DNA of 64,000 nt, taken from contig OZ245843.1 of the NCBI GenBank assembly GCA_965228875.1, forward strand, positions 3,826,616 to 3,890,615. The letters are read 5' to 3'. Both the position numbers and the translations under genes were made by a program. The notes beneath the pieces were generated by a model. The model made no database searches, had not been told where the DNA came from, and saw only the letters and a program-made list of their open reading frames with translations. This stretch comes from Thalassobaculaceae bacterium (GTDB taxonomy: Bacteria > Pseudomonadota > Alphaproteobacteria > Thalassobaculales > Thalassobaculaceae). Positions 4,816 to 19,509 of the stretch are shown here, piece by piece; positions within the stretch are counted from its first letter, which is position 1, and each line of letters starts with the position of its first letter.

Positions 4816-5511
4816 TCAGGCCAGGGCGTTGGCGTCGAGCGCGTAGCCGGCGGAGCGGACCGTGCGGATCATGTCGTCGTCGCTGTCGCTGTTGAGCGCC
4901 TTGCGGAGCCGCCGGATATGCACGTCGACCGTGCGCGGCTCGACATAGACATCCGGACCCCAGACCGTATCCAGGAGCTGTTCGCGCGAGAACACCCGGC
5001 CCGGATGCTCCAGGAAGTGGCGCAGCAGGCGGAACTCGGTGGGTCCGAGGTGAATGTCGCGCTCGCTGCGCTTCACCCGGTGGGCGGCGAGATCCATGGA
5101 TAGGTCCCCGAAGCGCAGGATCTCGTCCTCGGTGGACGGCCGGGCCCGGCGCAGGACGGCGCGGACACGGGCCACCAGTTCGGCCGGGCTGAAGGGTTTG
5201 GTGATGTAGTCGTCGGCGCCGGAATTCAGACCGCGCACCCGGTCGCCCTCTTCGCCGCGGGCGGTCAGCATGATGATGGGGGTGTTCTTCAGGTCCGGCG
5301 CCCGGCGTAGGCGGCGGCAGGCCTCGATGCCCGAGAGAAGGGGCAGCATCCAGTCGAGCAGGATCAGGTCCGGCCGCCGCTCGGCGGCGACCAGCATCGC
5401 CTCTTCGCCGTCTCCGGCTTCGATCACCCGGAACCCCTCGCGCTCGAGATTGTAGCGCAGCAGGGTGACGATCGGCGCCTCGTCCTCGACGATCAGGATC
5501 AGTGGTTTCAT
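4816..5511 (-). CDS. phoB: phosphate regulon response regulator PhoB
   Basis: Receiver domain (LLDWMLP) plus OmpR wHTH (VEPRTVDVHIRRLRK); last gene of the pst-phoU operon. Confidence 0.97.
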   Translation of the reverse strand: MKPLILIVEDEAPIVTLLRYNLEREGFRVIEAGDGEEAMLVAAERRPDLILLDWMLPLLSGIEACRRLRRAPDLKNTPIIMLTARGEEGDRVRGLNSGADDYITKPFSPAELVARVRAVLRRARPSTEDEILRFGDLSMDLAAHRVKRSERDIHLGPTEFRLLRHFLEHPGRVFSREQLLDTVWGPDVYVEPRTVDVHIRRLRKALNSDSDDDMIRTVRSAGYALDANALA

Positions 5512-15513: not shown

Positions 15514-18204
15514 GTGTCCGCCGAGCCGTCTTCGCCTGCCTCCTCCGATCCGGACGCACGGATCGCGGCCCGCGCCGCCGGCGCGACGCCGATGTTCCAG
15601 CAGTATTTCGAGGTCAAGCGCGCCCACCCGGACGCGCTGCTGTTCTACCGCATGGGCGACTTCTACGAGCTGTTCTTCGAGGACGCCGTGGCCGCCGCGC
15701 GGGCGCTGGACATCACGCTGACCCAGCGTGGTCAGCACCAGGGCGAGCCGATCCCGATGTGCGGCGTACCGCACCACAGCTCCGAGGGATACCTGGCGCG
15801 GCTGATCCGCCAGGGTTTCCGGGTGGCGGTCTGCGAACAGACCGAGGACCCGGCCGAGGCGAAGAAGCGCGGCGGGAAGGCGGTGGTGAAGCGCGAGGTC
15901 ATCCGCGTGGTCACGCCCGGCACCCTGACCGAGGACACGCTGCTCGACGCGCGGCGACCGAACTACCTCGCCGCCCTGGCCGAGGCCGGTGGCGCGTTGG
16001 GCCTCGCCTGGGTCGATCTGTCCACCGGCGATTTCCAGACCCAGCCGGTCGACGGCCGCGGCCTGGAGGCGGCGCTGGCGCGGCTGGCGCCGTCGGAACT
16101 GATCCTGTCGGAGAAGCTGTACGGCGATCCGGGCCTGGAAGGGGGCCTCGCCGAGGTCAGGGACATCGCCCATCCGATGCCGGGCGCCCGGTTCGACAGC
16201 GAGAACGGACGCCGCCGGCTGGAGACCGCCTATGGGGTCAGCGCGCTCGACGCGTTCGGCGCCTTCTCCCGGCCCGAACTGGCGGCGGCCGGAGCGGTGG
16301 TCGACTATCTCGACCTGACCCAGAAAGGCAAGCGGCCCCGGCTGGCGGCGATCCGCCGCTGGTCGCCCGGCGGGGTGATGGAGATCGACGCCGCCACCCG
16401 CCGCAACCTGGAACTGACCCGCACGCTGTCGGGTGAACGGCGGGGCAGTCTGCTCGCCACCATCGACCGCACCCTGACCGGGGCGGGAGCGCGGCTGCTC
16501 ATGGCCCGCCTGTCGGCGCCGCTGACCGATCCGGCGGCGATCGACGCGCGGCTGGACGGCGTTTCCTTCTTCCTGGAGGCGGAGCGCGCCCGGCGCGATC
16601 TGCGGGAGATCCTCGCCCGCATTCCGGATATCGACCGGGCCCTGTCGCGCCTGGCCCTGGATCGCGGCGGGCCGCGCGACCTGGCGGCGATCCGCGGCGC
16701 CCTCGCCGAGATCGGACCGATCCGCGAGGCGGTGGCCCGCGCGCCTCTCAGCACGCCGCCGGCGGCCGTCGCCCGCGACCTCGACGATCTCGGCCGGCAC
16801 GACGAACTGGTCGGCCTTCTGGGCCGGGCCCTGTCCGAGGATCTGCCGCTTCTGGCCCGCGACGGGGGGCTTGTCGCGCCGGGCTACGCGCCGGAGCTGG
16901 ACCGGCTGCGCGGCCTGCGCGACGAGAGCCGGCGGATGATCGCCGCCCTGCAGGCCAGGTACGCGGGCGAGACCGGGGTGTCGGCGCTGAAGGTCAAGCA
17001 CAACAACGTGCTCGGCTATTTCATCGAGGTCTCGGCGACGAACGGCGACAAGGTGATGGGCCGCGACGGCTTCATCCATCGCCAGACCATGGCCAACGCC
17101 GTGCGTTTCTCCACCGTCGAGCTGGGCGAGCTGGAGAAGGAGCTGTCGACGGCGGCCGACAAGGCGCTAGCGGTCGAGATGGAGGTGTTCGCCGACCTCG
17201 TCGCGAGGGTCCTGGAGACGGCGGACGCCATCGCCATCGCCGCGGCCGCGCTCGCCCGGCTGGACGTGGCGGCCGCGCTGGCCGACCTGGCGGCGGCGCG
17301 CGACTGGTGCCGGCCGGCGGTGGATGACGGTCTCGGCTTCGAGGTGGCCGCCGGGCGTCATCCGGTGGTGGAGGCGAGCCTGCCGGACGGGCCGGGCGCC
17401 TTCGTCGCCAACGGCTGCACCCTGGTGCCCGACGACCGGGTCTGGCTGGTCACTGGCCCGAACATGGCGGGCAAGTCCACCTTCCTGCGGCAGAACGCGC
17501 TGATCGCCGTGCTGGCGCAGATCGGCTCCTTCGTGCCGGCCGCCTCGGCCCGGATCGGTGTGGTCGACCGGCTGTTCAGCCGGGTCGGCGCCGCCGACGA
17601 CCTGGCGCGGGGCCGCTCCACCTTCATGGTCGAGATGGTGGAGACGGCGGCGATCCTGAACCAGGCGGGCGCGCGGGCGCTGGTGATCCTGGACGAGATC
17701 GGCCGCGGCACGGCGACCTTCGATGGCCTCTCCATCGCCTGGGCAACCGTCGAGCACCTGCACGAGAGCAACCGCTGCCGCGCACTCTTCGCCACCCACT
17801 ACCACGAGCTGACGGTCCTGGCCGACCGGCTCTCGGCGCTGTCCTGCCACACCATGGCGGTGAAGGAGTGGAAGGACGACATCGTCTTCCTGCACGAGGT
17901 GGTGGCGGGAGCGGCCGACCGCTCCTACGGGATCCACGTCGCCAAGCTGGCCGGCCTGCCGGGCGCGGTGATCGACCGAGCCGGCGAGGTGCTGGAGCGG
18001 CTGGAGACGGGCGAGCAGGGCAAGGCGGCGACCACCCTGATCGACGACCTGCCGCTGTTCAGCGCTGCCGCCCCGAAGCCGCGGTCCGCCGAGCCGGCGG
18101 GCCCGACCCCGCTGGAGGCGGCGGTCCGCGCGCTGAACCCGGACGAGATGACCCCGCGGGAAGCGCTCGATGCTTTGTATGCGCTAAAAGGGCTTGTTAG
18201 CTGA
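15514..18204 (+). CDS. mutS: DNA mismatch repair protein MutS
   Basis: [42 protein letters not shown]. Confidence 0.98.
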
Positions 18205-18245
18205 AGCTGAATAGCGGCTCAGTTTGCAGTGAGCTGCTGCGACGG

Positions 18246-18292
18246 CTACCATATCTAGATTTTGTAATAATGTTTCACACAAAATCTATTGA
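18246..18292 (+). promoter_or_regulatory. tandem NrdR-box-like sites upstream of the tRNA
   Basis: CTACCATATCTAGATT (18246) and ACACAAAATCTATTGA (18277) compared with consensus acaCwAtATaTwGtgt; starts 31 bp apart. Confidence 0.55.
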
Positions 18293-18376
18293 ACATCAGG
18301 CCCTTTTCCAGGATCTTTAAATCTTACATGGCCAAAAAGAAGGGCCGCCAAGTTTGACGGCCCGTTGCCTCTCACT

Positions 18377-18480
18377 GGAGGCGTGGCTGAGTGGTTTATA
18401 GCACCGGACTCAAAATCCGACGGGGGTACGGCTCTCACACCTAAGGCCCCCCGTGGGTTCGAATCCCACCGCCTCCGCCA
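18377..18480 (+). tRNA. atypical tRNA: serine-type body with CAA (Leu) anticodon
   Basis: Acceptor GGAGGCG/CGCCTCC, G73, encoded CCA; D arm GCTG-AGTGGTTTA-TAGC; anticodon arm CCGGA-CTCAAAA-TCCGA; 32-nt variable region; T arm GTGGG-TTCGAAT-CCCAC. Confidence 0.9.
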
Positions 18481-18486
18481 TTTCCT

Positions 18487-18516
18487 GGGTGGTCCTTCGG
18501 GACCACCCTTTTTCTT
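18487..18516 (+). terminator. intrinsic terminator of the tRNA
   Basis: GGGTGGTCC-TTCG-GGACCACCC followed by TTTTTCTT. Confidence 0.9.
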
Positions 18517-18596
18517 ACGTTTTCACGTTAGCAAGCCAACAAATTCAAATCGACTCGATTCTGCCCCGATTCGATTCGCCAGTAAAGAATAAAAAT

Positions 18597-18620
18597 GCCA
18601 TTTTAATTGAATAAAATGGC
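18597..18620. promoter_or_regulatory. inverted repeat (putative operator) over the start of the small ORF
   Basis: GCCATTTTA-ATTGAA-TAAAATGGC, perfect 9-bp arms; the right arm contains the ATG. Confidence 0.55.
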
Positions 18621-18864
18621 TACTCATTCAAAATCTTCTCGCGGCAGAGGTCGGCCGAAGAACGAGACAGACACCGTACAGATCACGCTCGCTGTACCGC
18701 CGAGATTGCATGCCTATCTCCGATATCTGGCACAGAACACGATGATGGGACCGTCGGCCCCAGCTGTGGCTCTATATGTGTTGACTAAGCAATTGGAAGA
18801 AATGCGGTTATCCGGCTATCAAGAGCCTGAACTGCCCAGTAACAACTCACCAGAAAATCAATAA
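18616..18864 (+). CDS. small putative ribbon-helix-helix DNA-binding protein
   Basis: 82 aa; RGRGRPK basic motif, beta-like VQITLAV, then two predicted helices; AT-rich codon usage. Confidence 0.6.
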   Translation: MATHSKSSRGRGRPKNETDTVQITLAVPPRLHAYLRYLAQNTMMGPSAPAVALYVLTKQLEEMRLSGYQEPELPSNNSPENQ

Positions 18865-18865
18865 A

Positions 18866-19459
18866 CTAGGGCCGGCCCGTCCTGAGCGTGGCATCGATCA
18901 GTCGGGTGATCGCCGCGCAGTAGGGGGCTGGATCCGCTCCGCCGGCGATCGCCAGGGCGGCCCGGTCGAAGGCGGCGGACAGACAGTCGGCCAGGGCGTC
19001 GAGCTCGGCCGGGTCGATCCGCGGCATCGCGGCGTCGAGCCCCCGGCGCAGGGTGTCGCCGCCCTGCTCCCTGTCCAGCGCCGCCATGGCTTCCGGCCCG
19101 AGCACGGCCGGCCCGTCCAGCAGCAGCAGTCGGGCCCGTCCGGGCTCCGTCATCGCCGCGAAATAGGCGCCGGTTCCCTCGATCAGCGCCTGGCGCGGCG
19201 AAATCTCCGGTCCCGTCGCCCGTTCGATGGCGCCGGACAGGGCGGCGGCCTCGGCGGCGACCACGGCCCGGAACAGGTCGGCCTTGTCGGCGAAGTGATG
19301 GTAGAGCGCGCCCCGTGTGACCCTGGCGGCGGCCACGATCTCCGGCGTGCCGGTCTCCCCGTATCCCTTCTCCACGAACAGCGTGCGGGCCGCGGCGATC
19401 AGCGCCGCCTTGGTCGCGGCCGTGCGGGACTCGTTCGATCGGCGCGATGTCTGTTGCAT
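18866..19459 (-). CDS. TetR-family transcriptional regulator
   Basis: [10 protein letters not shown]...[12 protein letters not shown] helix-turn-helix. Confidence 0.92.
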
Positions 19460-19509
19460 ACATACAGCCTGTATGTTAATTCGCATTCACTTACATACAA
19501 ACTGTACGT
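19460..19509. promoter_or_regulatory. two TetR-type operators between the divergent tetR and VOC genes
   Basis: ACATACAG-C-CTGTATGT (perfect, 19460-19476) and ACATACAA-A-CTGTACGT (19493-19509). Confidence 0.75.

Follow-up and report, generated by a model that had tools for sequence, protein, structure and literature searches.

What is a transfer RNA (tRNA) with the body of a serine tRNA and the anticodon of a leucine tRNA doing in an AT-rich islet behind mutS, between what reads as an NrdR operator and the gene of a small, putative DNA-binding protein? The locus lies in a window of 64,000 nucleotides (nt) from Thalassobaculaceae bacterium (assembly GCA_965228875.1, contig OZ245843.1; G000:C1:3826616-3890615), whose genome (G000) is a single contig of 4.96 Mb with 67.8% GC; coordinates are those of the window unless given as genome positions. 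On sequence comparison, the best explanation is that the islet is a horizontally acquired two-part cassette, belonging to a mobile family that pairs an odd tRNA with a small regulator, and that in this lineage a copy of the nrdJ promoter and operator has become joined to it. Its tRNA would probably put serine in the place of leucine.

The tRNA (18377-18480, plus strand) is 104 nt long and folds as a type-II, 7/5 cloverleaf with a Ser-type body, G73 at 18477 and an encoded CCA at 18478-18480. The Rfam model RF00005 matched 18377-18477 with 57.5 bits (E=1.2e-11) and a 30-nt insertion in the variable region; this is one of 48 Rfam tRNA matches in the genome, among which the Ser and Leu tRNAs of the host score 52-61 bits. 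ARAGORN reported no tRNA in the window, likely because of the variable arm (18421-18452, plus strand), which with 32 nt, made up of a 5-bp G-C stem and a 21-nt loop, exceeds the 17-21 nt of host tRNA-Ser. The pairs of this stem covary across the tRNA family, and one unpaired nucleotide stands on each side of it, as in host tRNA-Ser(UGA) and tRNA-Ser(GCU). The remainder has the 7-bp acceptor stem, U8, A14, G18G19, U33 and T loop (GTTCGAATC) of a regular tRNA. The D stem has 3 bp and an 11-nt, GG-containing loop, with U12-A23 where host tRNA-Ser has C12-G23, and the 5-bp anticodon stem contains one mismatch, C27-A43. The anticodon CAA (18411-18413, plus strand), which reads UUG, stands in a loop, CUCAAAA, identical to that of host tRNA-Leu(CAA).

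Compared part by part with the tRNAs of the host, the 5' part shares 17-20 of 26 positions with tRNA-Ser and 13-15 with tRNA-Leu, and the 3' part 24-26 of 28 with tRNA-Ser and 14-20 with tRNA-Leu; the T arm is identical to that of tRNA-Ser(UGA) and nearly so to that of tRNA-Ser(GCU). The anticodon arm matches tRNA-Ser at 8-12 of 17 positions and has its best match, 13 of 17, in tRNA-Leu(CAA). The body of host tRNA-Tyr is also similar (20/26 and 23/28), but carries A73. All four host Leu tRNAs have A73 as well, and leucyl-tRNA synthetase (LeuRS) requires it. The elements by which seryl-tRNA synthetase (SerRS) selects its substrates are common knowledge, and part of them are given in PMC5389517. 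In the islet tRNA those of tRNA-Ser are present: the long variable arm, G73, G1-C72/G2-C71/A3-U70 and C11-G24. What it lacks as a tRNA-Ser is an anticodon for a serine codon, UUG being a codon for leucine; what it lacks as a tRNA-Leu(CAA) is A73 together with a Leu-type acceptor and D arm. In an annotated phage collection, each annotated feature underlying a match to this type of tRNA was a tRNA-Ser, among the matches listed. Judged by these comparisons, the description of the islet tRNA as a Ser body with a Leu(CAA)-type anticodon arm is correct. The regular tRNA-Leu(CAA) of the genome is retained (genome position 4074915), and neither ARAGORN nor Rfam found a tRNA-Leu(UAA) gene in G000. A hybrid tRNA left by integration at an att site was rejected, as both acceptor halves are Ser-type and perfectly paired.

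The tRNA gene is followed by an intrinsic terminator (18487-18516, plus strand) identified by terminator and repeat scans, with a 9-bp stem and 4-nt loop (18487-18508) and a T run. Directly 5' of the gene lie an A-run and a GC hairpin (18337-18363; stem 18363-18342, T-rich tail) which resemble a terminator of the minus strand. This hairpin could end an antisense transcript crossing the tRNA; no promoter for such a transcript was found.

In the samples searched, relatives of this tRNA came from metagenomes, from viral contigs and from a small number of genomes, with sense as well as stop anticodons. A loose pattern scan of species genomes gave 8 tRNA-like matches by a T-loop filter among the 120 matches listed, three of them Ser-like CAA tRNAs with long variable arms, and a tighter CAA pattern found 8 viral and at least 76 metagenome loci. 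Thirty distinct sequences passed a filter that asked for 6 or 7 of the 7 acceptor pairs, for G73 or U73 and for 22 nt or more in the variable region; 27 of them and the window tRNA were aligned (alignment A3, n=28), three with arms of 38-55 nt being left out. On the written cloverleaf the paired cells make up 97.6%, and both sides have changed in 18 of 24 pairs, the filter for pairing inflating the former figure and not the compensatory counts. The 7-bp acceptor stem is paired in 99.5% and the 5-bp T stem in 98.6% of cells. The covariation score was 0.539, against 0.168 in shuffles (reached in 0 of 500) and at most 0.117 with slid partners. Read from this alignment, the tRNA family shows purifying selection on its structure. 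G1-C72 is present in 28/28 members, G2-C71 in 27/28 and G73 in 26/28.

Of 401 sampled genomes of the class, three gave long-arm tRNAs with an anticodon-free pattern, namely G000 (CAA), G194 (CCU) and G230 (UAG, with A73). Among the 119 matches listed from viral contigs, the same body carries CAA, CCU, GAG, GUC, GGU and CGC, Ser anticodons, and the suppressor anticodons UUA, CUA and UCA; several of the viral-contig copies are located at contig ends. The whole 7-nt anticodon loops of the relatives with the Leu anticodons GAG and UAG equal those of host tRNA-Leu(GAG) and tRNA-Leu(UAG), and in the Leu-anticodon members position 37 fits the codon class, with A37 for UUG and G37 for CUN. Because entire loops coincide with those of the cognate host Leu tRNAs, we read this as selection for decoding.

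Two minor features of the family were recorded. The loops of the variable arm (A3 columns 50-73) frequently hold a semi-conserved motif of the type GCC-TC-A-A/C-A-GC-AG, as in L153, L196, L181, L212, L244 and the CCU member L312. In locus L152 (G062:C28, a Mesorhizobium-labelled metagenome-assembled genome), a second sequence ~60-170 nt downstream of the CAA tRNA (~5020-5130) has ends like those of an acceptor stem and a T-arm-like stretch (GGGGTTCGATTCCCC). A further irregular tRNA may lie here, where Rfam reported nothing at the gathering threshold.

The left part of the islet proved to be related to the promoter of a gene for ribonucleotide reductase (RNR). According to the available part of PMC13584703, NrdR sites are built from two 16-bp boxes, partly palindromic and 15-16 bp apart, in which C4, A6, A8, T9, T11 and G13 are highly conserved, a natural box with T at position 13 exists, and the linkers between sites are not conserved. 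By direct reading and scoring, box 1 of the islet (18246-18261) has 6/6 of these positions and box 2 (18277-18292), which follows after a 15-bp linker, has 5/6 with T at 13; the arms TAGATTTTGT and ACAAAATCTA form a perfect 10-nt inverted repeat. Only 17 pairs with at least 11/12 positions exist in the 4.96 Mb, one of them ~380 bp upstream of nrdJ. Between the islet site and this nrdJ site (G000:132176-132227) identity is 88% over 52 bp, and with the nrdJ sites of eight genus members it is 83-92%; the similarity takes in the linker and goes on weakly for ~25 nt downstream. In alignment A4, composed of the genome's own nrdJ upstream region and those of five relatives, the homologous segment of the islet extends over 18225-18320 on the plus strand. 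Since the similarity includes the linker, which is said to be non-conserved between NrdR sites, we infer common descent with the nrdJ site, the left ~100 bp of the islet being a diverged copy of an nrdJ promoter from this lineage. The genome encodes an NrdR equivalog (genome position 1351825; TIGR00244, 172.3 bits against a cut-off of 124.65) and also an NrdJ equivalog. If the tRNA is under NrdR control, a non-RNR gene would belong to the NrdR regulon.

By our own reading, a TTGTAA/TCTATT pair is common to the islet and the nrdJ region. The other 11/12 pairs include three consecutive boxes at genome positions 1287898-1287992 and a well-formed pair at 3651648. In related loci the operator is rare: a pair with at least 10/12 positions lies within 250 nt upstream in 2 of 34, against a background of 0.015 per 250 nt. 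One of the two is L203, where a CAA tRNA is likewise followed by an ORF of the family described next; its pair has 10/12 positions, with 6/6 in the first box. The family as a whole does not share NrdR control. For the leader of the G061 homologue, no further copy was found in the draft genome that carries it.

The second part of the cassette is an open reading frame (ORF) for a protein of 82 amino acids (aa), P0001 (18616-18864, plus strand), for which an AlphaFold2 model and structural alignment predict a ribbon-helix-helix (RHH) fold. P0001 had no match in Pfam or NCBIfam, a word-based protein search found no homologue, and neither the plasmid nor the phage collection contained a match. An exhaustive HMMER search of 1.84 billion representatives gave 38 matches at E<=0.001. 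P0002, a 3,085-aa protein matched 18 times through low-complexity residues 4-28 only, was left out of the alignment; the 37 small proteins (51-85 aa) align with P0001 and conserve Y34, L35, L38, G45, V51, A52 and L56. The family is present in 5/401 sampled genomes of the class and 7/401 of the phylum, this genome included. In the model (mean confidence, pLDDT, 83.5) an extended segment is followed by helices at residues 29-41 and 48-65. Foldseek found no match in PDB at E<=0.001, the best being ArtA (E=1.4). The best ~47 rows returned by VIA-align were almost all RHH chains, many of them antitoxins, aligned over 44-53 residues with a root-mean-square deviation of 1.2-2.8 and Z<=5.0, values below the level that alone proves a fold. 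An RHH fold is likely for P0001 on these predictions. A perfect 9-bp inverted repeat (18597-18620, arms 18597-18605 and 18612-18620) covers the start of the ORF and is the presumed RHH operator; repeats of the GCATTTTAATG type precede the homologues in L253 and L198. Its position suggests that P0001 may be autoregulated.

By profile search, the tRNA is followed after 129-165 nt by a same-strand ORF of the P0001 family in the window and in L198, L181 and L203, all with CAA, and in G194 with CCU; such ORFs follow odd tRNAs in seven other loci. The order of A-run with GC hairpin, tRNA, terminator, spacer and ORF is common to five loci. Its A-run and hairpin, conserved in five loci, stand ahead of the tRNA in G061, G294, G194 and G754. 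The tRNA ahead of the P0001-family ORF in G294 and G754 is a 73-nt one with a short variable region, its anticodons being GGA and AGC by our own parse. In G169 and G221 the slot of the tRNA is occupied by a small basic ORF of 38-50 aa (L254 1162-1314, plus strand; L255 1829-1945, minus strand) with the motif R-x-Y-x-R-x-R-x-G-[KR]-W-E; the two products are 48% identical over 27 residues, with no Pfam match and no homologue in the word-based search. Rfam found no tRNA in the ~3-kb loci of the four weak P0001-family matches (E=5e-5 to 6e-4) in genus g323, and in one of these, L258, the P0001-family-like ORF comes directly after another gene; these matches were rejected. Other CAA loci hold a different small protein in the same slot, either of an RHH-like family (G061, L184, L207 and L230) or a coiled-coil ORF resembling helix-turn-helix proteins (9 CAA loci). 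Homology of the RHH-like proteins of G061, L184 and L207 to P0001 was rejected, BLASTP finding no link, and there are two separate small-protein families. In 16 of the 89 loci examined an IS1595-family transposase is present at a distance of no more than ~2 kb, and in G194 and L198 one stands immediately upstream. Near loci of the family there are also a SocA/Panacea antitoxin domain and a Schlafen-like gene.

The cassette occupies an inserted, low-GC islet of ~677 bp (18189-18865), delimited by blastn breakpoints and GC profile, between the convergent genes mutS (15514-18204, plus strand; five MutS Pfam domains) and tetR (18866-19486, minus strand; a TetR-family regulator by domain annotation). 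GC content, taken in windows of 200 nt over 18100-18899, drops to 0.45-0.58; the flanks have 0.64-0.80 and the genome 0.678. In four of five same-genus genomes (G009, G006, G008 and G001) the flanks abut: blastn alignments end at 18183-18188 and restart at 18866-18884, and the 3' ends of mutS and tetR overlap in these islet-free genomes. Since both flanks abut in the relatives, 18189-18865 is an insertion. It rewrote the last codons of mutS and gave the gene a new 3' end; MutS of the relatives ends in ALYALKAKAGSS, and that of G000 differently. The fifth genome, G005, has an unrelated AT-rich insert of ~1 kb at the same junction (L248 2092-3111), bounded by a ~45-bp direct repeat of it, which suggests that the junction is an insertion hot spot.

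Among 61 genomes, the 661-bp islet was matched in full length in G000 only. Contigs of run X1 span the islet and both flanks, and so does one from an aquatic metagenome of another study (X2), which differs at 2 of 1,724 nt and has this islet at this very junction. No contig joint removing exactly the islet was present in the run contigs compared, which says nothing on polymorphism either way. The islet contains no transposase or integrase, and the cassette had no match in the plasmid collection.

The original prediction had described an AT-rich islet right after mutS, with tandem NrdR-like boxes, a Ser-body tRNA with a CAA anticodon and an intact terminator, and a small DNA-binding-like ORF with its own inverted repeat. 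All of these are borne out by the GC contrast and breakpoints, the near-copy of the host nrdJ operator in a genome with nrdR, the part-wise identities of the tRNA, the hairpin with its T run, and the 9-bp repeat; for the ORF the agreement is with a predicted fold. Its expectation that the parts recur together elsewhere holds for the P0001-family ORF and the tRNA (L198, L181, L203 and G194); a box pair joins them in L203 and is present in two of 34 related loci only.

The closest known systems to the islet tRNA are the allo-tRNAs. As characterized in the available part of PMC5389517 (Mukai, Vargas-Rodriguez, Soll et al., Nucleic Acids Res 2017), these have serine identity, a long variable arm, G73 or U73 and non-Ser anticodons, including those for UUG/UUA/CUN, AGA/AGG and stop codons; their genes occur in Proteobacteria and metagenomes, near toxin-antitoxin and transposon genes, and those with Leu anticodons put serine at CUC and UUA and arrest growth of Escherichia coli. 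With its 32-nt variable arm, G73 and CAA anticodon the islet tRNA resembles them. What defines an allo-tRNA, however, is an acceptor/T branch of 8/4 or 9/3, a tRNA-Sec-like D stem that is long and closed by a tetraloop, and a longer anticodon stem (PMC5389517, available part). In the islet tRNA the branch is 7/5, the D stem measures 3 bp and its loop 11 nt, and the anticodon stem measures 5 bp. Membership was rejected for this reason, the resemblance supporting only that the two work alike, and the available part of PMC5389517 mentions neither an NrdR operator nor a dedicated RHH partner. The earlier claim of a new system is an overstatement, as Ser-identity tRNAs with Leu anticodons, toxic to E. 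coli, had been published there already.

The islet site agrees with the NrdR sites of RNR operons in its paired 16-bp boxes, 15-bp linker, 11/12 positions and near-identity to the genome's own nrdJ site, but fronts a tRNA gene instead of an RNR gene; the string 'trna' occurs 0 times in PMC13584703 as available. P0001 resembles RHH repressors and type II antitoxins (CopA, ParD, TacA, PrpA, Arc, Omega) in its predicted beta-alpha-alpha core and in the inverted repeat over its own start. Its partner differs from that of a type II toxin-antitoxin system, being a tRNA gene with a terminator of its own and not a co-translated protein toxin, and the islet contains no toxin ORF.

Serine-identity tRNAs on a Leu codon are represented by tRNA-Ser(CAG) of the CTG-clade yeasts and by engineered and human tRNA-Ser variants, SerRS ignoring the anticodon. 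All of these are eukaryotic; the codon is CUG or another one, and the change is either fixed in the code or sporadic, while the islet would be a mobile, regulated bacterial cassette. Natural mistranslating tRNAs of bacteria also include tRNA-ProX/ProA of Streptomyces, which has proline identity and is served by a synthetase paralogue of its own; the islet neither contains nor adjoins a synthetase gene. Neither NrdR control of a tRNA nor phage defence by a mistranslating tRNA was the subject of any paper found in a literature search with subscription journals outside its coverage. Natural tRNAs whose identity and anticodon clash are seldom met, and for hardly any of them is a trigger known. The locus appears to offer a decoding-competent Ser/Leu chimera of canonical fold, on a complete alphaproteobacterial chromosome and alongside the normal tRNA-Leu(CAA); with it, the allo-tRNA phenomenon would reach tRNA-Ser bodies of the ordinary 7/5 type whose variable arms are extra long. 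Its defined input, an NrdR operator apparently copied from nrdJ, and its partner protein make regulated mistranslation directly testable.

How would such a cassette work? We give a probability of roughly one half to a mobile cassette in which the tRNA is charged with serine, decodes UUG and stands under a borrowed, NrdR-controlled promoter together with an autoregulated RHH protein. NrdR with bound dATP would keep the promoter shut, and low deoxynucleotides would release it together with nrdJ. A precursor of ~215 nt would end at the intrinsic terminator and be processed to the 104-nt tRNA, which SerRS would charge because it has a tRNA-Ser body with the long variable arm and G73, and the enzyme ignores the anticodon. 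Through the CAA anticodon, in a loop identical to that of tRNA-Leu(CAA), it would compete at UUG and put serine for leucine, while the RHH protein would repress its own promoter by way of the inverted repeat. The net effect would be a conditional, codon-specific missense falling most heavily on TTG-rich, that is AT-rich and foreign, genes, and the cassette might persist as a selfish, toxin-like or defensive element.

Codon use was counted in 2,777 crude long ORFs of G000. TTG makes up 4.5% of the Leu codons (4.3 per 1000 codons), in keeping with the earlier remark that it is scarce in the host, and TTA (177 codons) 0.15%. The P0001 ORF has three TTG and one TTA (codon 65) among its 9 Leu codons. 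That TTG is read as serine in the cassette's own ORF was considered and rejected, as the three TTG sites of P0001 are Leu in the family and L56 is nearly invariant.

Several points weigh against the decoding cassette proposed here. With three TTG codons at family-Leu sites, the tRNA would damage its own partner. At least one TTG is present in 1,999 of the 2,777 long host ORFs (~72%), so the host would not be spared either. We infer charging by SerRS from identity elements only, and the variable arm of 32 nt has a 21-nt loop. The C27-A43 mismatch is in the islet copy itself, 6 of 28 members lacking a standard pair there. The search pattern fixed CAA, the anticodon loop and part of the D arm; with CAA thus pre-set, no conclusion on its conservation follows. 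No sigma-70-like promoter passed a scan of the islet, and NrdR boxes are absent from 32 of 34 related loci. Many copies of allo-tRNA(UAU) have been judged inactive in translation, with non-translational roles proposed (PMC5389517, available part). Finally, control of the nrdJ type implies that the tRNA is expressed while cells grow normally, and a strongly toxic product would be hard to reconcile with this; for this reason the harm done by the tRNA product is probably mild and not acute, or its activity poor. The same consideration speaks against expression only under attack.

Of the alternatives, the one that survives best, which we nevertheless consider unlikely, takes the product to be a tRNA-shaped RNA that serves a mobile element outside translation, as a regulatory RNA, as a handle for a protein through its variable arm, or as a landmark for recombination or transposition. 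Roles of this kind have been proposed for many allo-tRNAs (PMC5389517, available part), and they would suit the IS1595 transposases within ~2 kb of 16/89 loci and directly upstream in G194 and L198, the viral-contig copies at contig ends, the semi-conserved variable-loop motif, which is unrelated to decoding, and the conserved minus-strand, terminator-like hairpin before the tRNA. But all translation-relevant features are kept (7/5 branch, U8, A14, G18G19, U33, a purine at 37, T loop and CCA), the anticodon loops are identical to those of the cognate Leu tRNAs, and the islet itself is without transposase or integrase.

We have less inclination still to regard the islet as a relic without activity, a piece of a mobile element left stranded, with a tRNA that this host either does not express or does not process. 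A relic could well look like a solitary insertion without mobility genes, with a C27-A43 mismatch, no promoter passing the scan and the single IS1595 transposase of the genome 38 kb off with a different cargo. It would hardly be expected to have ORF, terminator, inverted repeat and box pair all intact, to recur at the same junction in an aquatic metagenome of another study with 2 differences in 1,724 nt, or to belong to a tRNA family under purifying selection on its structure.

It is improbable, in our estimate, that the locus is a defence or addiction module with a tRNA effector tied to NrdR, in which foreign DNA would drain the deoxynucleotides, UUG would be read as serine and the TTG-rich proteins of the invader would be crippled, the cassette's own TTG-rich repressor along with them. 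If true, it would be the first natural case of regulated mistranslation used as a weapon. With TTG codons in ~72% of the long host ORFs, the preferential damage to foreign proteins which the original prediction had proposed is not supported, and an anti-phage role of the cassette is possible but unsupported. Least credible of all is a genuine extra Leu tRNA, charged by LeuRS and supplying UUG decoding to TTG-rich foreign genes as many phage tRNAs do, for although the anticodon arm is closest to host tRNA-Leu(CAA) (13/17), the cassette ORF is TTG-rich (3/82 codons against 4.3 per 1000 in the host) and the relative in G230 (UAG) has A73, G73 is found here and in 26/28 family members, the four Leu tRNAs of the host all having A73, the body (acceptor, D and T arms) is of the Ser type, and codon supply leaves the Arg, Asp, Ala and stop anticodons on the same body unexplained.

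The sole IS1595-family transposase of G000 lies 38 kb upstream of the islet, outside the window (G000:C1:3806385-3808703; L385 3385-5703), and is ~68% identical by tblastx to the one adjoining the tRNA of G194. Beyond it comes a low-GC stretch with an NYN-domain gene in the position of the cargo, followed by a small ORF homologous to the ORF beyond the tRNA and RHH cargo in G194. From its gene order, this locus looks like the same kind of element with a different cargo.

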